From the sequence record MT611523.1: a DNA stretch of 64,000 nucleotides. One strand, written 5' to 3'. This document shows positions 16,587-63,889 of this stretch, piece after piece. The notes below the pieces were generated by a model that was given only the letters and a program-made list of their open reading frames with translations, had not been told where the DNA came from and searched no databases. The position numbers and the translations under genes are program-made. Source of the DNA: Escherichia phage DK-13. The first letter of the stretch is position 1; the number at the start of each line of letters is the position of its first letter.

Positions 16587-16820
16587 TTATTCCAAAACAG
16601 TTTTAATAGTGGTTGCATTACGCTCTTTTAGAGCACGCAATAGATGGTGACAATTTTCAAGAATAGGCACCGTTTTATAGTTCGTTTCGGCGCGAACCCA
16701 CTCGGATTTATAGTACGATTTCCAGCGAGAGAAAAAGTACTTTTTGTATTCTACTGAATAGGCTACTAAGCTTTCGCCTTTTGAGTTTAGCCCTGAAAAT
16801 TTAACTAGACGAAATTTCAT
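16587..16820 (-). CDS. hypothetical protein
   Basis: 77-aa ORF. Confidence 0.5.
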   Translation of the reverse strand: MKFRLVKFSGLNSKGESLVAYSVEYKKYFFSRWKSYYKSEWVRAETNYKTVPILENCHHLLRALKERNATTIKTVLE

Positions 16821-17401
16821 TATTCACCACAAAATTCGTTAATGTTTTCCCAGTTCAATTTGTCTAGACTACGCTTAGGCACATTGAACACCTCAATTCC
16901 TGCATTCTTCAGGATATCATCCCAACCAGGAATATTCTTATCATACGTTTCACAGTAAACCAATTTCTTGATTCCTGATTGAGAAATTGCCTTTGCACAA
17001 TCAGGGCAAGGAGAAAGCGTCACATACATAGTAGCGCCTTCAATTGACGAACCCATTCTGGCTGCGAACAGAATTGCATTAAGCTCGGCATGAATTTCGT
17101 TGTTCTTTGACCAGGCCGAATGAGCTTCGCGATGAGCTTTCGCCAATACAAAACGGTCAACCTTACTGAATCTCACACATTCTGGCTTGTGACCAGGGAC
17201 GAGAACAGGTTTAGGTTTATTCAGTAACCAACCTTGCTCTTCCGCATGCTCGCAACAGTTGACCCCACCTGCAGGGGAACCATTATACCCTGTAGAAATA
17301 ATGCGGCCATTCTTTTCAATAACAGCTCCCACTTTCCAGGAGCAACATTTGGATTCTTGAGATACAAGGTATGCGATTTGCAGAACAGTAGTTGGTTTCA
17401 T
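16820..17401 (-). CDS. cd: dCMP deaminase
   Basis: 193 aa; cytidine/deoxycytidylate deaminase zinc motifs H(A)E...PCPDCAKAI; size equals T4 Cd. Confidence 0.9.
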   Translation of the reverse strand: MKPTTVLQIAYLVSQESKCCSWKVGAVIEKNGRIISTGYNGSPAGGVNCCEHAEEQGWLLNKPKPVLVPGHKPECVRFSKVDRFVLAKAHREAHSAWSKNNEIHAELNAILFAARMGSSIEGATMYVTLSPCPDCAKAISQSGIKKLVYCETYDKNIPGWDDILKNAGIEVFNVPKRSLDKLNWENINEFCGE

Positions 17402-17737: not shown

Positions 17738-17979
17738 TGAATATACACTCGCTGCGCTTCAACCAGACCATCAGAACCCAATTTCAGTTGGGTCAACTGG
17801 TCACCACCTTTTAGAGTAATTTTCGGATTAATGACAATCATAAAACTGCGTGCAGATTCCTGAATAACTTGCAAAGTCGCAGCAGGGAATCGCTGTGATA
17901 CGCGGTTAATCATCTCTTGAGCAAATGCCTTCACTTTTTCGTGGAACTCTTCAACAGTAATTGGGGTTTCGCTAAGCAT
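17734..17979 (-). CDS. hypothetical protein
   Basis: 81-aa ORF, ATGA overlap. Confidence 0.5.
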   Translation of the reverse strand: MLSETPITVEEFHEKVKAFAQEMINRVSQRFPAATLQVIQESARSFMIVINPKITLKGGDQLTQLKLGSDGLVEAQRVYIQ

Positions 17980-18521
17980 CAGATTGTCTCCTGTTTTACT
18001 TGTTTAACGATAGAAGCTTTTGTGATATCGCCTTTGATAATATAGCAATCTTCAACAGTACCACGGTTTAACAGACGCTCTGCTTCGCCTTCCGCATATT
18101 CTTTTGACACATGACGAGAGTTAATCTCAATCTTGCCATTTTTAACCACAAGCAATTTCCAAACTGATGCAAGTTTTACTGGCACAGGTTCAACTTCTGG
18201 CTTAACACCAACTTCTGCCTGGATGAAATAATCAAATTCATCAGACAATGGACCAGCAGAAACAAACATTGCCCCATGATGCCTGTTCTGTGTGCCAGAT
18301 ATTTTTGGCAAATCCACAAAATCATTTTCATCAATCAAACGAATCTCACAAACTTTTTTACCGCCGCTGATGTCATCGGATAAAATCTTAACTTCAAACG
18401 GAGTCATACCGATGTATCCAGCAATTTGGTAATTGGCTGCCCAGCCTCCGGCAATAAACTGTTTTTTGGCATTTTCAGATACAAATTTGTAAAACTTACC
18501 TTCTTCAAAGAAATCGCTCAT
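17979..18521 (-). CDS. hypothetical protein, member of an in-window paralog family (GKFY...AKKQFIAG N-terminus)
   Basis: 180 aa; N-terminus EEGKFYKFVSENAKKQFIAGG similar to the ORF at 31834..32202; own early promoter upstream. Confidence 0.55.
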   Translation of the reverse strand: MSDFFEEGKFYKFVSENAKKQFIAGGWAANYQIAGYIGMTPFEVKILSDDISGGKKVCEIRLIDENDFVDLPKISGTQNRHHGAMFVSAGPLSDEFDYFIQAEVGVKPEVEPVPVKLASVWKLLVVKNGKIEINSRHVSKEYAEGEAERLLNRGTVEDCYIIKGDITKASIVKQVKQETI

Positions 18522-18550
18522 TTTGTTTTCCTCATGTGTTGATGAAATTC

Positions 18551-18579
18551 ATTATACACCATCCATGGTGAAAGTAAAC
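18551..18579 (-). promoter_or_regulatory. early promoter (GTTTAC, 17 nt, TATAAT) with palindrome CACCATGGATGGTG in spacer
   Basis: - strand GTGTTTACTTTCACCATGGATGGTGTATAATG then SD GAGGAAAACAAA. Confidence 0.5.
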
Positions 18580-18581
18580 AC

Positions 18582-18860
18582 TTAAATTGCTTCGACAACT
18601 ACCGTTTGTTTCTGGAAGTCCATTTTGCATGAAATAGCCAAAATATGGTTATCAATTTTAAATGGAACAATTGCAAATGCTGCACCAGGCGTGAGTTGAA
18701 CAGTGATTGCATCAACTGCATCCGGGAACATGATTTCCAGAATAGCAGACAAACGACCGTGCACTTTTAGTTCAGTCGACACGTCGACGCTTTCGTATAG
18801 ATAATCAGATACAATCTGACTAAAAAGTACTTTAACAATTTCAGAATATGTAGGAAACAT
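18582..18860 (-). CDS. hypothetical protein
   Basis: 92-aa ORF. Confidence 0.5.
   Translation of the reverse strand: MFPTYSEIVKVLFSQIVSDYLYESVDVSTELKVHGRLSAILEIMFPDAVDAITVQLTPGAAFAIVPFKIDNHILAISCKMDFQKQTVVVEAI

Positions 18861-19529: not shown

Positions 19530-19530
<1 letters not shown>
19330..19530 (-). CDS. hypothetical protein
   Basis: 66-aa ORF abutting pseT stop. Confidence 0.45.
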
Positions 19531-20748
<1,218 letters not shown>

Positions 20749-29476: not shown

Positions 29477-31252
<1,776 letters not shown>

Positions 31253-31262
31253 TATATTTTCC

Positions 31263-31502
31263 TCACGCTTTCTTAGCGACTTTCCAGTCAGCTTTAAATT
31301 GGTCAACGTCAGAGTGATGAATCCAGAAACCAGATGAGCTACCATCTTCATAAAGAGGACAACCATCACACTCATCTTTCCAACCCATTGCACACAAAGT
31401 TTCTTCAGCTTTTTCCAGAGCTTCTGGATTGTTACCCTGGATTGTGAAATACCATTTGCCTTTAACTTCTGAATCTTTGATGCTCTCACGTTGTAATTTC
31501 AT
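31263..31502 (-). CDS. hypothetical protein
   Basis: Tracker start is TTG inside the promoter; ATG start after CTGGAGAATAAA gives 79 aa (MKLQRESIKD...). Confidence 0.5.
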   Translation of the reverse strand: MKLQRESIKDSEVKGKWYFTIQGNNPEALEKAEETLCAMGWKDECDGCPLYEDGSSSGFWIHHSDVDQFKADWKVAKKA

Positions 31503-31541
31503 TTTATTCTCCAGTTTTGTTGTGTAACTCAATATGGGACC

Positions 31542-31570
31542 ATTATGTCATAGCCCCATTTGGTTGTACA
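31542..31570 (-). promoter_or_regulatory. early promoter (TGTACA, 17 nt, CATAAT)
   Basis: - strand AAAAAGTAGTGTACAACCAAATGGGGCTATGACATAATGGTCCCATATTGAG. Confidence 0.45.
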
Positions 31571-31577
31571 CTACTTT

Positions 31578-31832
31578 TTAAATTTTATCAAGCCATTTTC
31601 CAAGTTTAGTCATTTCCTTGGTGGCTTTTTCCATACTTCTGAATTTAATTAATAAAGGATAGGTATCTACACCCATCACCAGATTGGTTGCAAGACTATG
31701 TTCACCAACAAGCCATAATGAGTATGTTTGAACATCCAGACCATAATTTCTGTCTTTATGTAAACGTACACCCATCACTTCAAATTGTTCACTGGCTTTT
31801 TCCACTGCATTCAGGAAATCATCTTTAGTCAT
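31578..31832 (-). CDS. hypothetical protein
   Basis: 84 aa from first ATG (tracker start is TTG). Confidence 0.45.
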   Translation of the reverse strand: MTKDDFLNAVEKASEQFEVMGVRLHKDRNYGLDVQTYSLWLVGEHSLATNLVMGVDTYPLLIKFRSMEKATKEMTKLGKWLDKI

Positions 31833-31833
31833 A

Positions 31834-32202
31834 TTAGACCCCAAAAGTTGCTTTAATCAGTGCAATGACTTCTGCGGCATTTTTGTGATTGACTTGCACA
31901 TGAATGGTTTGGGTATCAACATCAGGAGCATCGCCATCAACTTCCAGGAAGTGACAGAATTCCCATTCAGCGAGTTCAAAGTACTCATCAACATCACCCA
32001 TACTATTCAGGATGGTACCATCTTTCATTTCAACTTTTTCAACAAAATAATCACCTTCAATATAACACATATCCAGGACTTTGAAGGAACTACCATGTTG
32101 TTCCATCAACTTGACCATGCACGAATTATCATCAGGACTACCAGCGATGAATTGTTTTTTAGCAGCAGGGTCTAATACGTAAAATTTACCAGTTTCCATC
32201 AT
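31834..32202 (-). CDS. hypothetical protein, paralog family member
   Basis: Start moved to ATG after GAGGAAATTAAA; 122 aa; similar to 32550..32912 over full length and to 17979..18521 at N-terminus. Confidence 0.5.
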   Translation of the reverse strand: MMETGKFYVLDPAAKKQFIAGSPDDNSCMVKLMEQHGSSFKVLDMCYIEGDYFVEKVEMKDGTILNSMGDVDEYFELAEWEFCHFLEVDGDAPDVDTQTIHVQVNHKNAAEVIALIKATFGV

Positions 32203-32225
32203 TTTAATTTCCTCATTTTTGTTGA

Positions 32226-32260
32226 GGGAACATATTATCATGTTCCCGTTGGTTTGTATA
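32226..32260 (-). promoter_or_regulatory. early promoter with perfect palindrome GGGAACAT/ATGTTCCC around -10
   Basis: - strand TATACAAACCAACGGGAACATGATAATATGTTCCC. Confidence 0.45.
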
Positions 32261-32488
32261 CTAAGCTTGAATCAAGCCCATATAAAATTCAGCGTCTTCC
32301 GGGTGCATCCCTTCGCAATATTCATTTTGCATAAAGCGGGTAAGGTCTTCAAGAGGACCTTGAACTTCAATTTGAATACTAAAGAATTGGGTATCTTTAA
32401 TGTAAGTCATACACAAAGAAGGATACCGATTACGAATAACTTCGTAAGTGTATTCAAAATCAACGATATCAATATTAACCTTAGCCAT
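32261..32488 (-). CDS. hypothetical protein
   Basis: 75-aa ORF, SD GAGGAAAATAAA. Confidence 0.5.
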
Positions 32489-32517
32489 TTTATTTTCCTC
32501 ATGTAGTTGATAGGTCT

Positions 32518-32547
32518 ATAGTATCTCAACCATAGACCGTTGTAAAC
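32518..32547 (-). promoter_or_regulatory. early promoter (GTTTACA, 17 nt, TACTAT) with inverted repeat GGTCTAT/ATAGACC
   Basis: - strand AGTTTACAACGGTCTATGGTTGAGATACTATAGACC. Confidence 0.45.
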
Positions 32548-32549
32548 TG

Positions 32550-32912
32550 CTATTTGAAAGCTTTTTGTAGAAGTTCAATGATTTGGTCGACGTTATTAGC
32601 ATCTACAACACAATTAATAGAAACCGCCCCCGAAGGTGTTTTTGTATAATTGGAGTATTCACGGAAGCAATAAAACTCTTCTTCACTAAGTTCAAAATAA
32701 TCATCACCCATGCCATCATCATTATAGATTGCACCATTAGCACAAATGATTTCGGTTACATAATCATAGCCGTCTAAACTTGATATTGATTTAACTTCAA
32801 ACCAACCGCCATTTTCTTGGATGATGTCGACCATACTAGCATTCGATGAACTAATATCAATGAAAGATTTAATACGATGTGGATTGAACTCATATTTTTT
32901 GCCGATTTCCAT
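32550..32912 (-). CDS. hypothetical protein, paralog family member
   Basis: 120 aa; shares DxYFEL.E.EF motif and overall pattern with 31834..32202. Confidence 0.5.
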   Translation of the reverse strand: MEIGKKYEFNPHRIKSFIDISSSNASMVDIIQENGGWFEVKSISSLDGYDYVTEIICANGAIYNDDGMGDDYFELSEEEFYCFREYSNYTKTPSGAVSINCVVDANNVDQIIELLQKAFK

Positions 32913-32950
32913 TTTTATTTCCTCAGTTGTTATCAGTAGTTGATGGAATC

Positions 32951-32979
32951 ATTATGCCTTAGCTCAAGGGGATTGTACA
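32951..32979 (-). promoter_or_regulatory. early promoter (TGTACA, 17 nt, CATAAT) fused to gene 32 terminator
   Basis: - strand ...TTTTTATTTTAAAAAAGTAGTGTACAATCCCCTTGAGCTAAGGCATAATGATTCCATC. Confidence 0.5.
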
Positions 32980-32984
32980 CTACT

Positions 32985-33016
32985 TTTTTAAAATAAAAAA
33001 GGGACCCGAAGGTCCC
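32985..33016 (-). terminator. rho-independent terminator after gene 32
   Basis: - strand GGGGACCTTCGGGTCCC then TTTTTATTTT. Confidence 0.7.
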
Positions 33017-33022
33017 CTTATA

Positions 33023-33934
33023 TTAAAGGCCAGCCAGAAGGTCGTCAAGACCATCATCAGAAGGCTCTGGAGTGCTTGGAGCAGTCGCAGTGCGTTCAGA
33101 CTTAGCAGGTTTGCTGGAAGTGAAGTCTTCCATATCTTTATCAAAATCGTCCAGGTCAGCACCCAGTTTATCGGCTTGTGCAGCGGCTTTAGAAGCAGCA
33201 CCACCGAGAGCAGCCGTACCCATTACTTTAGAGAATTTCTTCTGATTCTCTTCAAGGGATTTAAACACCAGCAATTCATTCAGGTCAGACATTTCGTCCC
33301 AAAGTTTTTTCTGGAATGCTTCATCATTGATACCAGCGATTTCAGACTGGTTCATGAATTTGGAATCATCGTAGTTTTTATAACCGGAAACCATTTTAGA
33401 TTTCAGTACGAAGTTCGCACCTTCAAACGGACAAGTTACATCGATAGCAGTTTCACCCATGTCAACATCGACTTCAACCATCTGGTTGATTTTGTCCATG
33501 ATTTTCTTACCAAAGCGATATTTGAATACTTGGCCTTCGTTAGACGGAACTGCAGGGTCTTTAATGACCAGGATGTTAGCCCAGTAAGAAGTATTACGCT
33601 TCAGTTTACGATATTCGGATTCGTTTGTATTGTACAGGTCATTCTTATTCATGTACGCACACACAGGGCAGTTTTCATAATCGCCGTGAGTAGAAGTACA
33701 GTTTTCAATATACCATTGACCAGCATTTTTAAAGCCGTGGTTAACGAGCTTGATGAATGGAGATGGATTTTCTTCATTCTTAGAAGGCAGGAAACGAATA
33801 ACCGCAGAGCCGACACCATCAGTATCTTTCAGTTTCCATTCTTTTTTATCGTCAGAAGAGAAACCAGCACCACCTTTCAGTGCATTAAGGGAAGCAGCCA
33901 GGTCAGCAGGGTTTTTACGTTTAAACATAGACAT
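33023..33934 (-). CDS. 32: single-stranded DNA-binding protein gp32
   Basis: 303 aa; [58 protein letters not shown], acidic C-terminal tail ending DDLDDLL. Confidence 0.95.
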
Positions 33935-33983: not shown

Positions 33984-34622
33984 TTAATTATACTTCAAAG
34001 TGATTGAAGCGATAAACTTTTGAAATTCAGAATCAAGATGGGGATTCCATCCTAATTTGAATTTATTTATAATGGAAATACCGGTCGTGTGTGTACACGG
34101 TAAACCAGTTTCTCTTGCCATAATAACTGGACCAAGTCTGGAAGTTCTATGCGGTCCTATATACCAGTCATAATATATTCCAGCATTTAACCAAACTAAA
34201 TGAGCACCTTTAGCTATTGTATTAGGATGTTCCCAAGGCAATAAACCTTTAAGGTGAGAATTTAATTTCATATTTATTTTATGTGATTCTGATTTTGGTT
34301 TACCTTTTAATGAAGACTTAAAGGTTCCACGAGCACTCGCCTTATTGAAAAACAATGGCGATTTAACCACATTATAGTGTTGATGGTAAAACTCTTCTTC
34401 TGACAACACATCGTCACACACATGCAGAATTTTAACGGTTGGTTTTTCAGACAATGCCTCAATAAAACGAGATTGTTTGCATGAAGACCAGTATTCTTTA
34501 TTATGTGAATCAATTATAACACCATTTTCAAAAGCACAATTATGCTTTGACCCAATGTAAAAATAAGGAGGCGTTTTATTTTTCAGACGAGTTTCAAATG
34601 TAAACCAATATACAACATTCAA
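33984..34622 (-). CDS. homing-endonuclease-like ORF (GIY-YIG/NUMOD-like, SegG position between 32 and 59); no ATG start, possibly degenerate
   Basis: Tracker start codon is TTG; first in-frame ATG only at codon about 118; N-terminus VVYW...YFYIGSK resembles a GIY..YIG motif pair; GKPKSESHKINMKLNSHLKG resembles NUMOD3. Confidence 0.4.
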   Translation of the reverse strand: MNVVYWFTFETRLKNKTPPYFYIGSKHNCAFENGVIIDSHNKEYWSSCKQSRFIEALSEKPTVKILHVCDDVLSEEEFYHQHYNVVKSPLFFNKASARGTFKSSLKGKPKSESHKINMKLNSHLKGLLPWEHPNTIAKGAHLVWLNAGIYYDWYIGPHRTSRLGPVIMARETGLPCTHTTGISIINKFKLGWNPHLDSEFQKFIASITLKYN

Positions 34623-59464: not shown

Positions 59465-61297
59465 TTATAGCGTCGCATTCATCCAGTCTTTACGCTGCTG
59501 GGAATCTTTACCGAATAGCATTTCGAACAGTTCTTTCCAGTTGTCGGGCAATTGAACAACTTCGAATACCGGTTCGAGCAATACACGTTTATACTCGGCA
59601 TCTTCCAGAGAACCAAGCCCCTTGATATATCGGATGGTGTGCTTCGGAAGTTTATCCTTAGCTTCTTCATAGTCAGGGAGAGAATAGAACCATTCTTGTT
59701 TATCTTTGAGCTGTGCAATAATAACAGGAGTTTTCACAAAGCGAATTCGTCCTTCATGGAACAACTCTGGCCAGTTACTGAAAAACGCCAATAATGATGG
59801 ATAGATACTACCGACACCATCCACATCCGCATCTGTCATGATAGCAATGTTTCGGTAATTCATATTCTCGGCCGGTTGTCCAATCGTTAATCCAGTAATT
59901 GCACACACATCAAAGGCTTCAGCGTTCTTCATAACTTCAACAGCTTTCAGACCCCATGTGTTTTTAAACTTACCACGTAATGGATAAGCACCTTGCAATT
60001 CACGGTCACGAACCTTGATAAATGGACCGGTTGCAGAATCACCTTCAGTCAGGAACAGAGTTGTTTCCAACTTATCATTGCCCCATTCGTTGGCTTTGAT
60101 ATGCTTTTGTACCTTGGCCTTTGAAGCTTTCTTATTTGCTTTAGTCTCTGCTGCTTTCTCTGCAGCCAATTTACGGGCTAATGCAGCTTCAACAATCGGC
60201 ATAATCAGCGGTTCATTTTTCAGAATAGCTTGCGCGATTTTCTTGGCATCAATCTTAATGTGATTTCGAATTTCGCCAGCCGGAGAAGTCAATCGCTCCT
60301 TGGTCTGGGAATCAAATCGCATGTTGCTCATATCGCGGATGAACATAAGCATGGTGAGACATTCTTTAACTCGTGCCTTGGTCACCTCGATGCCTTTATA
60401 TTTGCGCTTAATCGCAGGCTGAAGGTATTCACAGATATCATCCATAACACATTCAACGTGGTGTCCGCCATTCTTTGTATGAATATTGTTGACATAAGTC
60501 AGCTGACGGAAACCGTCCGGGCTGGTCGTAAAGGCCATCGATACTGTATCAGTTTCCTGGATAACAACTTCAGTTCCGAATTGCTTGGAGAACTTCTTGA
60601 AATTACCATCAACCTTTTTACCATTAAAGGTGAACTGAATATCCGGATAAACAACCGCGAGAGTCTGTAAACGGTCTAATGTAATATCCAGATAAATCTG
60701 GGACAGACTATTTTCTTCAAAGTGACTAAAATCTGGAACAAATATAACAGTTGTACCTTTGCCCTTAGATTTCTTGGTGGACCAACCTTTGTTTTCCATA
60801 CCGTTGGAGCAGTTAACAGTAATTTCATTTGTCCCATCAGCGGTAATCCCGGTGAACAATACAGAGAAAATATTGGTCAGAGAAGACCCGACACCATTCA
60901 TCCCGCCAGTTTTACGTTCAGCATCATCACCGAAGTTGCCACCGGCTTTTGGAATAGTCCATGCTGCAACAGGGCCAGGGATTTGTTCACCGTTTTGGTC
61001 TGTAACCATTGCTTGTGGAATACCACGGCCATTATCAGAAACCGAAATCTGATTATCTTTAATTTGGACATCAATTTTATTGGCAAATTTAAAACTGGTG
61101 CGAATTGCTTCATCAACAGAGTTATCGATAATTTCATCAATCAGTTTTACAATACCAGGAACATAGCTTACGGACTTATATTCACCAAACAAGAATCGCT
61201 CATGCGCTTCATTTGAACTGGAACCAATATACATCCCGGAACGTTTTTTGATATGCTCGACGTCCGAGAGTACTTTAATTTCATTATTAATCATCAT
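59465..61297 (-). CDS. 39: DNA topoisomerase II large subunit gp39 (GyrB-like ATPase), unsplit
   Basis: 610 aa; GHKL ATPase motifs (...DNGRGIP..., GGMNGVGSS) plus TOPRIM-type C-terminal region; single continuous ORF, no gene-60 split. Confidence 0.9.
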   Translation of the reverse strand: MMINNEIKVLSDVEHIKKRSGMYIGSSSNEAHERFLFGEYKSVSYVPGIVKLIDEIIDNSVDEAIRTSFKFANKIDVQIKDNQISVSDNGRGIPQAMVTDQNGEQIPGPVAAWTIPKAGGNFGDDAERKTGGMNGVGSSLTNIFSVLFTGITADGTNEITVNCSNGMENKGWSTKKSKGKGTTVIFVPDFSHFEENSLSQIYLDITLDRLQTLAVVYPDIQFTFNGKKVDGNFKKFSKQFGTEVVIQETDTVSMAFTTSPDGFRQLTYVNNIHTKNGGHHVECVMDDICEYLQPAIKRKYKGIEVTKARVKECLTMLMFIRDMSNMRFDSQTKERLTSPAGEIRNHIKIDAKKIAQAILKNEPLIMPIVEAALARKLAAEKAAETKANKKASKAKVQKHIKANEWGNDKLETTLFLTEGDSATGPFIKVRDRELQGAYPLRGKFKNTWGLKAVEVMKNAEAFDVCAITGLTIGQPAENMNYRNIAIMTDADVDGVGSIYPSLLAFFSNWPELFHEGRIRFVKTPVIIAQLKDKQEWFYSLPDYEEAKDKLPKHTIRYIKGLGSLEDAEYKRVLLEPVFEVVQLPDNWKELFEMLFGKDSQQRKDWMNATL

Positions 61298-61362: not shown

Positions 61363-61761
61363 TTATTTGAATCGAAGCTGCTCTAACATTTTAATAGCTT
61401 GTAGACGTCCGGCTTCAGTTTTAACCGTAATAATAACATCACCGCCGGTAACAACGATATCCTCTTTTGATTCCTGTTCGGTTATTTCAGAATCACATTC
61501 CGGGACTTCTTCAAAATATTTAAATTCATCACCAAAAATAAGACCGGTTCCATTACGACTATGGAAAGAAAACCCAGTTCCATCGATAGTACTAAATTCC
61601 GTAACAACATTTGCTTCCATCTTAGTGACTGAAAACTCTTTGGTAGTAACCAAATCAATGATAGAGGTTCCTTGTTGGTTCAAAATGCTACCAGGCATAC
61701 CGACATGTTTAAGGAAGCCATCTAAATCTTTAATGCAATAACTCTTTCCAATTTTAAACAT
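61363..61761 (-). CDS. hypothetical protein
   Basis: Start moved to ATG after GAATGAGGATATT; about 132 aa. Confidence 0.5.
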   Translation of the reverse strand: MFKIGKSYCIKDLDGFLKHVGMPGSILNQQGTSIIDLVTTKEFSVTKMEANVVTEFSTIDGTGFSFHSRNGTGLIFGDEFKYFEEVPECDSEITEQESKEDIVVTGGDVIITVKTEAGRLQAIKMLEQLRFK

Positions 61762-61768
61762 AATATCC

Positions 61769-62029
61769 TCATTCGAATCGGATGGTTGAATTCTTAAACA
61801 GCAATCCAGAACAAACGGTTCCTTCAACTTTCTTACCAGTTGGGCCCACGGCTGTAAAACCTGTGTGTTGAAAATCATCTTTACCACAAGAGAACCAGTT
61901 ATAACCGGTGATTTGGATTTGCTCATAGCCGTTTGCATCTAATACACGAATGGCATTATCTGCATCAGTACAACCAGCCAATGAAACCGCCAGTACCAGT
62001 GCTGCAATAGAACGATTAATGTATTTCAT
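61769..62029 (-). CDS. predicted lipoprotein
   Basis: 86 aa; signal peptide with lipobox LAGC (MKYINRSIAALVLAVSLAGCTDA...). Confidence 0.55.
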   Translation of the reverse strand: MKYINRSIAALVLAVSLAGCTDADNAIRVLDANGYEQIQITGYNWFSCGKDDFQHTGFTAVGPTGKKVEGTVCSGLLFKNSTIRFE

Positions 62030-62213: not shown

Positions 62214-62588
62214 TTATTCCTTAAAATGTGCTTTCAACATCTGGTACACGGTCCAGGCTTCAGAGTTATTAGAAATTGTGATTTTAGTCAAAGGGAATTC
62301 GCTTGGTTCAAATGCTTCATCAGCGTCTTCGCATTCATCTTCAGTATCGTCATCTTTTTCTTCTTCAAAGAAACGACGCTCATCTTCCTTTATGAATATT
62401 CTCTCTATTCCACCGGTCGAAAATTCTATCCGATATACATCACCACCTTCAATTCCGACTGGTCTAAATCCTTCACCATTGATTATAGCATCAGCTATAT
62501 TATCATTATCAGAGCATAACAAACGAAATCTGCTTTCAGCAACATTATCTTTAAAATAATACCATTTATCAGTTTCAAATTTCAACAT
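62214..62588 (-). CDS. hypothetical protein with strongly acidic segment
   Basis: Start moved to ATG after GGAAGGAGACTTATC; about 124 aa; EEEKDDDTEDECEDADEAFE. Confidence 0.5.
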   Translation of the reverse strand: MLKFETDKWYYFKDNVAESRFRLLCSDNDNIADAIINGEGFRPVGIEGGDVYRIEFSTGGIERIFIKEDERRFFEEEKDDDTEDECEDADEAFEPSEFPLTKITISNNSEAWTVYQMLKAHFKE

Positions 62589-63418: not shown

Positions 63419-63889
63419 TTAATTAAAAATTTCAACAGCCATGGAACGTGGTACAACAGTAAATTCACCAGCATGGACAACGTTCAGGAGTTCAACACCA
63501 TCTTCAATCCACTGGTCTGTTACCCAACCACAAATGGAACTATTAAATGGACGTTTGATTTGAACTGGTTTACACAACAAGTCAATAGGGTCACCCAGCT
63601 CGCTAACTTCTTCCAGCAGTACAGATTCACGCGGATAAAGGATAGCTTCAAGATTGTCACCTGATTCATTGACTGCAGTAAATTCAAAAATGCTTTGGTG
63701 ATTGTGGTACTTAACTGTTTTAACGGTAAATGGAGCAAATCCAAAAATACCTTTCAGTACCCGCCAACCGGCATTCAATGCATTAGTATTATCAAAATCA
63801 CCATATCCAACAAGTTGATAGGTTTTGTCAACTTTGATAGGAGTTTCTTCAACTTCTTTGAAGAGTTCAATCTCAGCTTCATAAACCAT
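63419..63889 (-). CDS. hypothetical protein, tandem paralog of 62851..63342; reading frame stays open upstream to the window end
   Basis: C-terminus ...CGWVTDQWIEDGVELLNVVHAGEFTVVPRSM; no in-frame stop between 63890 and 64000, so the true start may lie outside the window. Confidence 0.45.
   Translation of the reverse strand: MVYEAEIELFKEVEETPIKVDKTYQLVGYGDFDNTNALNAGWRVLKGIFGFAPFTVKTVKYHNHQSIFEFTAVNESGDNLEAILYPRESVLLEEVSELGDPIDLLCKPVQIKRPFNSSICGWVTDQWIEDGVELLNVVHAGEFTVVPRSMAVEIFN

Follow-up and report, generated by a model that had tools for sequence, protein, structure and literature searches.

Small acidic proteins of two hyperplastic islands of Escherichia phage DK-13 as probable members of the GoF/Frd.2/MotB.1 family of T4-like phages

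The stretch of 64,000 nucleotides of Escherichia phage DK-13 DNA (sequence record MT611523.1) analysed in this study, hereafter the window, comes from a T4-like phage of the SP18/VR7 type (Gaprivervirus). Its DNA between positions 31500 and 33100 is 98% identical to that of Escherichia phage P479 and 96% identical to that of vB_EcoM_VR20, and was also matched by the Shigella phage SP18 (Gaprivervirus). An earlier note on this DNA had described three small genes in two hyperplastic islands as a paralogous family that arose by the duplication of cassettes. Our results mainly put this finding in order, as the paralogous family is the published GoF/Frd.2/MotB.1 family. The three genes are designated here as A (17979-18521), B (31834-32202), and C (32550-32912), and three further genes discussed below as D (62214-62588), E (61363-61761), and F (63419-63889).

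The open reading frames (ORFs) of A, B, and C were confirmed at these coordinates, and each of them is preceded by a GAGGAAA-type ribosome-binding site (RBS). All genes treated here (A–F, frd.3, and frd.1) lie on the minus strand. The assignment of the three genes to two islands proved correct. Gene A is flanked by cd, coding for deoxycytidine monophosphate (dCMP) deaminase (16820-17401, minus strand; PF00383), and by pseT, coding for polynucleotide kinase (PNK; 19530-20435, minus strand). B and C are flanked by frd, the gene for dihydrofolate reductase (DHFR; 30333-30914, minus strand), and by the gene for gp32 (33023-33934, minus strand). The gene frd.3 (32261-32488; PF05798), which lies between B and C, is outside the GoF/Frd.2 family.

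The 120 amino acid (aa) product of C is a Frd.2 paralogue of the type present in T4, referred to as the 'a' type (PF03197, E=1.9e-35). It is 79.5% identical to T4 Frd.2 by BLASTP and 84% identical in a global alignment (81% at the nucleotide level). C is thus the orthologue of T4 Frd.2, the locus of which is also between gene 32 and frd. The 122-aa product of B represents the second, or 'b', type. It corresponds to frd.2b of SP18 (98% identity) and, in JS98, to the frd.2 gene that comes first behind gene 32, and its identity to T4 Frd.2 is 34-36%. Whereas T4 has a single Frd.2 copy after frd.3, the window contains two copies, one of each type, with frd.3 between them.

B and C can be aligned from end to end with 32% identity (BLASTP E=1e-15). 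Their Smith-Waterman score of 137 was compared with that of 2000 shuffles preserving the composition of the proteins (28.8 ± 5.3), which gave z=20. Membership in the Pfam family FRD2 (PF03197) is defined by a whole-protein hidden Markov model (HMM) score of at least 29 bits, the curated cut-off, and both B (114.9 bits) and C (121.9 bits) exceed it about fourfold. A barrel, an acidic linker, and a C-terminus composed of a strand and a helix are common to B, C, and T4 Frd.2 (PF03197; PHROG 622). At the level of coding DNA, the only match between B and C is a single stretch of 20 nucleotides (nt), 80% identical.

The 180-aa protein encoded by A, which falls into phrog_5804, was linked to this family by cross-matches to the goF PHROGs, by a leave-one-out HMM, and by an AlphaFold2 (AF2) model. 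Its similarity to B is confined to the N-terminal 20 residues (65% identity, E=3e-4), a score reached by 8 of 2000 shuffles. The first 50 residues of A match T4 GoF with a BLASTP E value of 5e-4, and an equal score was obtained in 1 of 2000 shuffles. For the leave-one-out examination, a family HMM was made of 74 sequences with no A-type protein among them. This profile recovered A with E=7.3e-5, aligning its residues 5-85, and A took the top place among the non-members within the 516 ORFs of the window. Further links were provided by matches of the A N-terminus to the goF family phrog_2980 (E=1.6e-8) and to phrog_3710 (E=2.3e-7), as well as by hhalign against GoF (E=1.4e-4, with a probability of only 53%). 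No Pfam model matched A at E up to 1, so A falls under the FRD2 cut-off. The kinship of the three genes proposed in the earlier note is therefore confirmed: B and C are homologous over their full length, and A is related to them through its N-terminal domain.

Of the two motifs that had been proposed for all three genes, the central one, DxYFELxExEF, is strong between B and C only. A shares just the E-F-x-x-F part of it (E95..F99 in A, E81..F85 in B, E79..F83 in C), in a register other than the one originally implied.

In the AF2 model of A, residues ~1-102 are predicted to form a barrel of the GoF/Frd.2 type, which is followed by a disordered linker of low predicted local distance difference test (pLDDT) score (residues 108-118) and by a separate beta-beta-alpha-beta domain (residues 121-163). 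The order of the elements in the N-terminal domain, b-a-a-b-b-(b)-a-b, is the same as in the predicted model of B. With an E limit of 1e-3, a Foldseek search of predicted viral structures (BFVD) with the A model retrieved 39 proteins, of which the named ones were uncharacterised proteins of ~120-275 aa from T4-like phages, two-domain proteins among them, and GoF of the phage VR7. The structure search with the whole A model gave weak and mixed matches. A comparison across T-even genomes, which had been proposed as a check, found A only in 84 phage records of the Gaprivervirus/Dhakavirus type, and T4 is without it. Judging from the sequence comparisons, A is a real relative of the family that shares its N-terminal domain only. 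It is a new architectural variant without a T4 counterpart, and its C-terminal domain is unlike those of the three T4 genes studied by Kim et al. (2025, PMC12152347).

A separate similarity was observed between T4 Frd.3 and A, the residues 95-145 of which are aligned with it over 51 aa at 25% identity (BLASTP E=7e-6, 0 of 2000 shuffles). For the Frd.3 of the window itself, the E value was 0.003. We rejected a kinship of Frd.3 with A or with the family C-terminus. The Pfam Phage_FRD3 model has no match in A, an HMM of the C-terminal half of the family recovers neither Frd.3 nor the tail of A, and the beta hairpin predicted in this part of A is incompatible with a strand and a helix. The match is left as a weak similarity without explanation.

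The earlier note had counted three members. The family was already published, and the window contains at least six members, the other three being found in the interval from gene 39 to motB. The product of D (124 aa, minus strand) is the orthologue of GoF. Its full-length identity to T4 GoF is 33% (E=2e-12), it matches phrog_622 (E=3e-29), and its relatives are named 'goF mRNA metabolism modulator'. The neighbours of D also correspond to those of T4 GoF, a cef-like gene lying on the upstream side and the 39.2 zinc ribbon on the downstream side. E encodes an extra Frd.2/GoF-like paralogue (132 aa, minus strand; phrog_622 E=2e-17) and abuts gene 39 on its upstream side. Relatives of E, 35-39% identical, are present near gene 39 in many Tequatroviruses, for example RB32ORF005c. 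The Pfam FRD2 cut-off was missed both by E (15.1 bits against 29) and by D, which had no FRD2 match at all. A, D, and E are thus, from their profile scores, relatives outside the boundary of the Pfam FRD2 family. B, C, D, and E are alignable over their whole length. The motif GKxY at strand 1 is common to them, and so are ExxxF ahead of the last strand, the acidic linker, and an end made up of a strand and an amphipathic helix with F-K as its last residues.

F (156 aa, minus strand) is the orthologue of T4 MotB.1 (37% identity, E=1e-18), the third branch in the published family, and carries a MotB-like C-terminal segment, with a PF17613 match at residues 116-150. When the family HMMs were run over all 516 ORFs of the window, they recovered A–E only, and F reached merely E=0.35-2. 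Its place in the family therefore comes from the work of Kim et al. (2025, PMC12152347) and not from a sequence link to A–E. We also observed that this 156-aa MotB.1 orthologue ends in a complete MotB-like segment (PF17613 positions 118-152), whereas T4 MotB.1 (119 aa) ends soon after the GWVTDQWI motif, so that the T4 gene looks C-terminally truncated.

According to Kim et al. (2025, PMC12152347), the family that unites GoF with MotB.1 and Frd.2 is restricted to T4-like phages, and its members consist of a barrel, a flexible linker, and then various C-terminal domains. The barrel is five-stranded, takes up the first half of the protein, and has its closest solved folds among the SH3 domains of the FeoA/IdeR type. 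All three T4 genes belong to the early class, and phages with amber mutations or deletions in them show normal plating, the efficiency of plating (EOP) being ~1 for the frd.2 amber mutant (PMC12152347). The family is therefore already known as one of early, dispensable proteins of T4-like phages. That study covers the three T4 genes and a tree of 210 sequences (PMC12152347). The window adds to them the second Frd.2 type (B), the paralogue next to gene 39 (E), and A.

The proteins of the window agree with this description. A, B, C, D, and E are joined by PHROG cross-matches via phrog_622, phrog_3710, and the goF PHROGs, and hhalign of FRD2 against GoF gave E=1.8e-5. The N-terminal half is predicted as a bent five-stranded antiparallel barrel with FeoA-type SH3 domains as the nearest solved folds, the same as in the published work. 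The AF2 model of B (pLDDT 90.6) has strands at residues 7-10, 39-48, 51-59, 64-66, and 85-88, two helices inserted after strand 1, a linker of low pLDDT at ~90-99, and a C-terminal helix at 109-120. The profile and structure comparisons that had been proposed as checks thus point the same way. Profile searches of the PDB sequences with the alignments of A and B gave nothing, that is, no relative with a sequence-detectable solved structure. Among 1.84 billion proteins, the family profile found only 113 clusters (at 50% identity), of which 67 have the barrel with the FRD2/GoF C-terminus, 30 the barrel with another tail, 9 tandem barrels, and 3 the C-terminal domain of the A type. All six members in the window are acidic (pI 4.2-5.5; aspartate plus glutamate 15-26%), including their barrels (net charge -3 to -12). 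Their general architecture would begin with an SH3/LSm-like N-terminal beta-barrel, in which two helices are inserted after strand 1, and continue through a flexible, acidic linker to a short domain at the C-terminus.

Our best guess on the function is that these are acidic early adaptor proteins acting on mRNA or on transcription factors. GoF mutations at D25 and G84, which lie on one face of the barrel, let T4 grow on rho mutants (PMC12152347). In our alignments, both positions fall inside the two conserved motifs: FIK-D25 corresponds to QFIA-G of A and B, and E82-A-G84-F-F86 to E-F-x-x-F. The counterparts of D25 are thus G25 in A and G21 in B, and those of G84 are D97 in A and C83 in B. This coincidence of motifs noticed by eye with the only two positions known to change the phenotype of GoF suggests a shared functional face, which, if so, could be mutated in any paralogue. 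The barrel would serve as a binding module, its conserved face carrying FIxG/D, which follows helix 1, and E-x-x-x-F, which precedes the last strand. This face would contact a factor of mRNA metabolism or transcription that is encoded by the host or the phage. The C-terminal strand and helix would mediate self-association; GoF and MotB.1 run as a monomer and a dimer (PMC12152347).

Taken together with the fold and function proposed above and the mode of diversification discussed below, the assignment of A, B, and C to the GoF/Frd.2/MotB.1 family of early Tevenvirinae proteins, with at least six members in the window, has in our estimate a probability of about 85%. Several results weigh against it. 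The pairwise links of A are weak: its comparisons with C, D, and E were non-significant in the shuffle tests, hhalign of the A family against the a-type FRD2 profile gave a non-significant E of 0.13, because the A alignment is shallow (number of effective sequences, Neff, 1.4). The A model is only of moderate confidence (pLDDT 74.9). In the published work, AlphaFold3 produced no confident models of homodimers or multimers, and wild-type GoF and MotB.1 had no effect in a reporter assay (PMC12152347); no wild-type member is known to have a biochemical function. In a screen by CRISPR interference through antisense RNA targeting (CRISPRi-ART), frd.2 was the one gene without a known function that scored as a fitness gene of T4 (PMC11879866), which conflicts with the neutral amber mutant. 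Finally, a generic promoter scan showed no enrichment over shuffled sequences (9 against 9.8 and 8 against 8.2), and it is therefore not evidence for promoters by itself. As to the conflicting fitness data, one Gaprivervirus genome, that of the window, holds six or more members, among which three different C-terminal domains are represented, and such redundancy may mask single knock-outs and could explain the conflict in T4.

A different role, possible but on the whole unlikely, would be that of counter-defence or host-range factors, the variable barrel neutralising or decoying an immunity or stress protein of the host; this would explain why the genes are dispensable in the laboratory. Such a role would suit acidic proteins encoded in hyperplastic islands, and similar phages indeed have divergent alleles at one locus: the T4 type, the T2/RB3 type (~50% identity), and the RB51 type (~35%). 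In both Frd.2 types, the barrel is less conserved in sequence than the C-terminus (identity of 73 against 92% and of 62 against 79%), and there are mosaic alleles, such as P0081, with the C-terminus of T4 and a divergent barrel. The fitness effect seen by CRISPRi-ART and the neutral amber mutant were obtained in different strains, which could also be read in this sense. However, no member of the family is known to trigger or block a defence system, and our literature search found no paper tying frd.2 to defence. The variability of the barrel and the mosaic alleles fit a target-recognition module on a conserved scaffold and leave room for a host-range or counter-defence role.

It is doubtful that the proteins are Hfq-like RNA chaperones, with a genuine LSm domain for the direct binding of RNA, by which phage mRNAs would be stabilised or remodelled. 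Kim et al. (2025, PMC12152347) use this as their working hypothesis. The likeness to Hfq and Sm/LSm proteins consists in the small, bent, antiparallel beta-sheet barrel and in a possible link to mRNA stability that comes from GoF(D25Y). The leader RNA of gene 41 was stabilised by this mutant protein only and not by the wild type, no confident multimer model was obtained, and wild-type GoF and MotB.1 were inactive, as stated above (PMC12152347). Moreover, the barrels of all six members in the window are acidic, the Pfam search of A, B, and C, taken up to an E of 1, gave neither LSM nor Hfq, and Sm/Hfq chains were not the closest structural neighbours of the window barrels in the structure search. 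The acidity of the members and the lack of an RNA effect of wild-type GoF favour a protein partner over direct Hfq-like binding of RNA.

An improbable further reading is that the barrel is a Tudor-like domain binding RNA polymerase, of the CarD/CdnL, Mfd-RID, or UvrD/PcrA C-terminal type, and not an LSm RNA binder. If this were true, GoF, Frd.2, and their paralogues, including A, would dock on the beta lobe of the host RNA polymerase and modulate elongation or Rho-dependent termination. Such docking would directly explain the goF mutations that suppress rho alleles.

The sequences upstream of the genes in the frd-32 island contain a 49-nt repeat in four copies (61-78% identity), found before C, frd.3, B, and frd.1. 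On the coding strand, the repeat consists of an AT-rich tract, T(G/T/A)TACA, a spacer of ~17 nt, and a -10-like hexamer, and each copy is followed by the near-identical leader TGAGGAAAxTAAAATG. All the cassettes described are on the minus strand. The cassette of C (32943-33019) comprises the gene 32 terminator hairpin (32998-33019), the AT-rich tract, and TGTACA-N17-CATAAT. The cassette of frd.3 (32510-32558) has TTTACA-N17-TACTAT and a 10-bp hairpin (z=-4.0). In the cassette of B (32224-32272; repeat family D1) the -35/-10 elements are weak and a 9-bp hairpin surrounds GATAAT (z=-3.4), and the fourth copy, upstream of frd.1 (31534-31582), has a hairpin with z=-2.7. The hairpins of the last three copies (9-10 bp, z from -2.7 to -4.0) are formed around the -10 element. 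In the cd-pseT island, the cassette of A (18537-18584) contains TTTACT-N16-TATAAT, then the leader CATCAACACATGAGGAAAACAAAATG, similar to the leaders of the frd-32 island, and a 5-bp palindrome with a stability no better than that of shuffled sequences. Of the promoter cassettes claimed for each of the three genes, those of A and C have promoter-like elements, and in that of B the match to -35/-10 is weak.

These elements resemble the promoter-early stem-loop (PeSL) cassettes of T4-type phages (PMC2839356, PMC4122927) in their intergenic position in hyperplastic regions and, less clearly, in the AT-rich tract with sigma-70-like -35/-10 elements and in the adjacent stem-loops. The T4-type PeSL consensus TTTACW-N17-TAYWAT (Comeau et al. 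2014, PMC4122927) is present exactly before frd.3 and with N16 before A; the window has 3 matches against 0.55 expected. The promoter-like sequences of C and frd.1 agree with it at 9 of 12 positions, and that of B is weak. Unlike the PeSL terminators with a G/C tract, the window hairpins mostly enclose the -10 element. A profile of the cassette found ~10 further copies in the window, each of them on the minus strand and ahead of some other small gene. Since the cassettes also precede frd.3, frd.1, and these other genes, they are putative early-gene elements of a generic, PeSL-like kind and not a mark of the family. Neither D nor E has its own cassette, as the start codon of each abuts an upstream gene. 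The family genes would be transcribed early from such sigma-70-type promoter/stem-loop cassettes.

The order of genes after gene 32 differs between phages: frd.3, a-type, frd.1 in T4; b-type, a-type, orf232, frd.3, frd.1 in JS98; a-type, b-type, orf, frd.1 in SP18; and a-type (C), frd.3, b-type (B), orf, frd.1 in the window. The a/b order in JS98 is thus inverted relative to SP18 and the window. Sequences like B (at least 60% identity) are present in 66 records, which belong to Dhakavirus, Gaprivervirus, and Gelderlandvirus (S16), and both types occur together in Dhakavirus (JS98), Gaprivervirus (SP18 and the window), and Gelderlandvirus (S16). As the types co-occur in three genera, their split is older than these genera. 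B and C therefore appear, as far as sequence comparison goes, to be ancient paralogues moved by small regulatory cassettes and not recent duplicates.

The relationship of C to its surroundings points to an exchange of alleles with a Tequatrovirus-like phage. C is 68.6% identical to the a-type gene of JS98 (60% at the aa level) and nearer to T4, with the identities given above, whereas its neighbours are 84-92% identical in DNA to JS98, each of them being nearer to JS98 than to T4.

The unit containing frd.3 (32217-32485, 269 bp) is exactly the segment that SP18 lacks, and it is bounded by a direct repeat of 17-19 nt, the RBS-ATG leader, at 32200-32218 and 32486-32504. Arbiol et al. (2010) mapped crossovers between the -10 element and the ATG (PMC2839356), and the bounds of the frd.3 unit are of that kind; the breakpoints of indels have this position in both the published and the window cassettes. 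With its position differing in T4 and JS98 and the gene missing from SP18, frd.3 is probably a mobile cassette. A second indel of the same style was observed at 30896-30914, where SP18 has an extra gene of 76 aa between frd and the next ORF. The frd-32 island is thus a clean natural case of shuffled cassettes, the breakpoints lying within the promoter/leader repeats. The cassettes coincide with the breakpoints of rearrangements that moved old, diverged genes and made no fresh copies.

The C-terminal half of the T2/RB3-type Frd.2 (P0079, P0081; L003 1644-2030) is nearly identical to that of T4 Frd.2, and its barrel is strongly diverged, which suggests intragenic recombination at the domain boundary. 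The family would seem to have diversified through an old duplication, the exchange of alleles between co-infecting phages, and the shuffling of domains.

A recent duplication in situ, in which one gene and its promoter were copied as a cassette, both inside the frd-32 island and into the cd-pseT island, is very unlikely and already largely refuted. The four copies of the 49-nt repeat with near-identical RBS-ATG leaders in the frd-32 island, the similar leader before A, and the PeSL-mediated shuffling and mini-circles documented in T4-type phages (PMC2839356) speak in its favour. Yet the proteins B and C, only 32% identical, are encoded by DNA matching over just 20 nt, A shares the N-terminal domain alone, both Frd.2 types are found in three genera with the order swapped in JS98, and the cassette precedes the unrelated frd.3, frd.1, and ~10 other genes and is missing at D and E. 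Of the expansion by cassette duplication suggested in the earlier note, there remain the paralogous family, the hyperplastic islands, and the flanking cassettes at the breakpoints, but not recent or local copying, the cassettes being generic and the split old.

That the proteins resemble each other by chance, as short acidic proteins of similar composition might and as the non-significant comparisons of A with C, D, E, and the a-type FRD2 profile would allow, is hardly credible given the z of 20 for B and C in shuffles preserving composition, their Pfam FRD2 scores, the recovery of A by a profile from which it was excluded, by three PHROG families, and by T4 GoF, and the identical order of predicted secondary-structure elements in A and B.

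Several minor observations were made on other genes of the window. The 212-aa ORF at 33984-34622, in the gap between genes 32 and 59, is the counterpart of the SegG homing endonuclease annotated in SP18 and T4; it has no Pfam match at E up to 0.001, and JS98 has no gene at that spot. The large subunit of topoisomerase II (59465-61297) is encoded by one ORF of 610 aa, which includes the TOPRIM_C end. It is unsplit in the window, whereas T4 has genes 39 and 60 with an insertion between them. The homologue of 39.1 (61769-62029, 86 aa) has a lipoprotein-like signal (…LAGC) at its N-terminus, and the annotation of T4 39.1 (65 aa) begins downstream of the segment that holds this signal.

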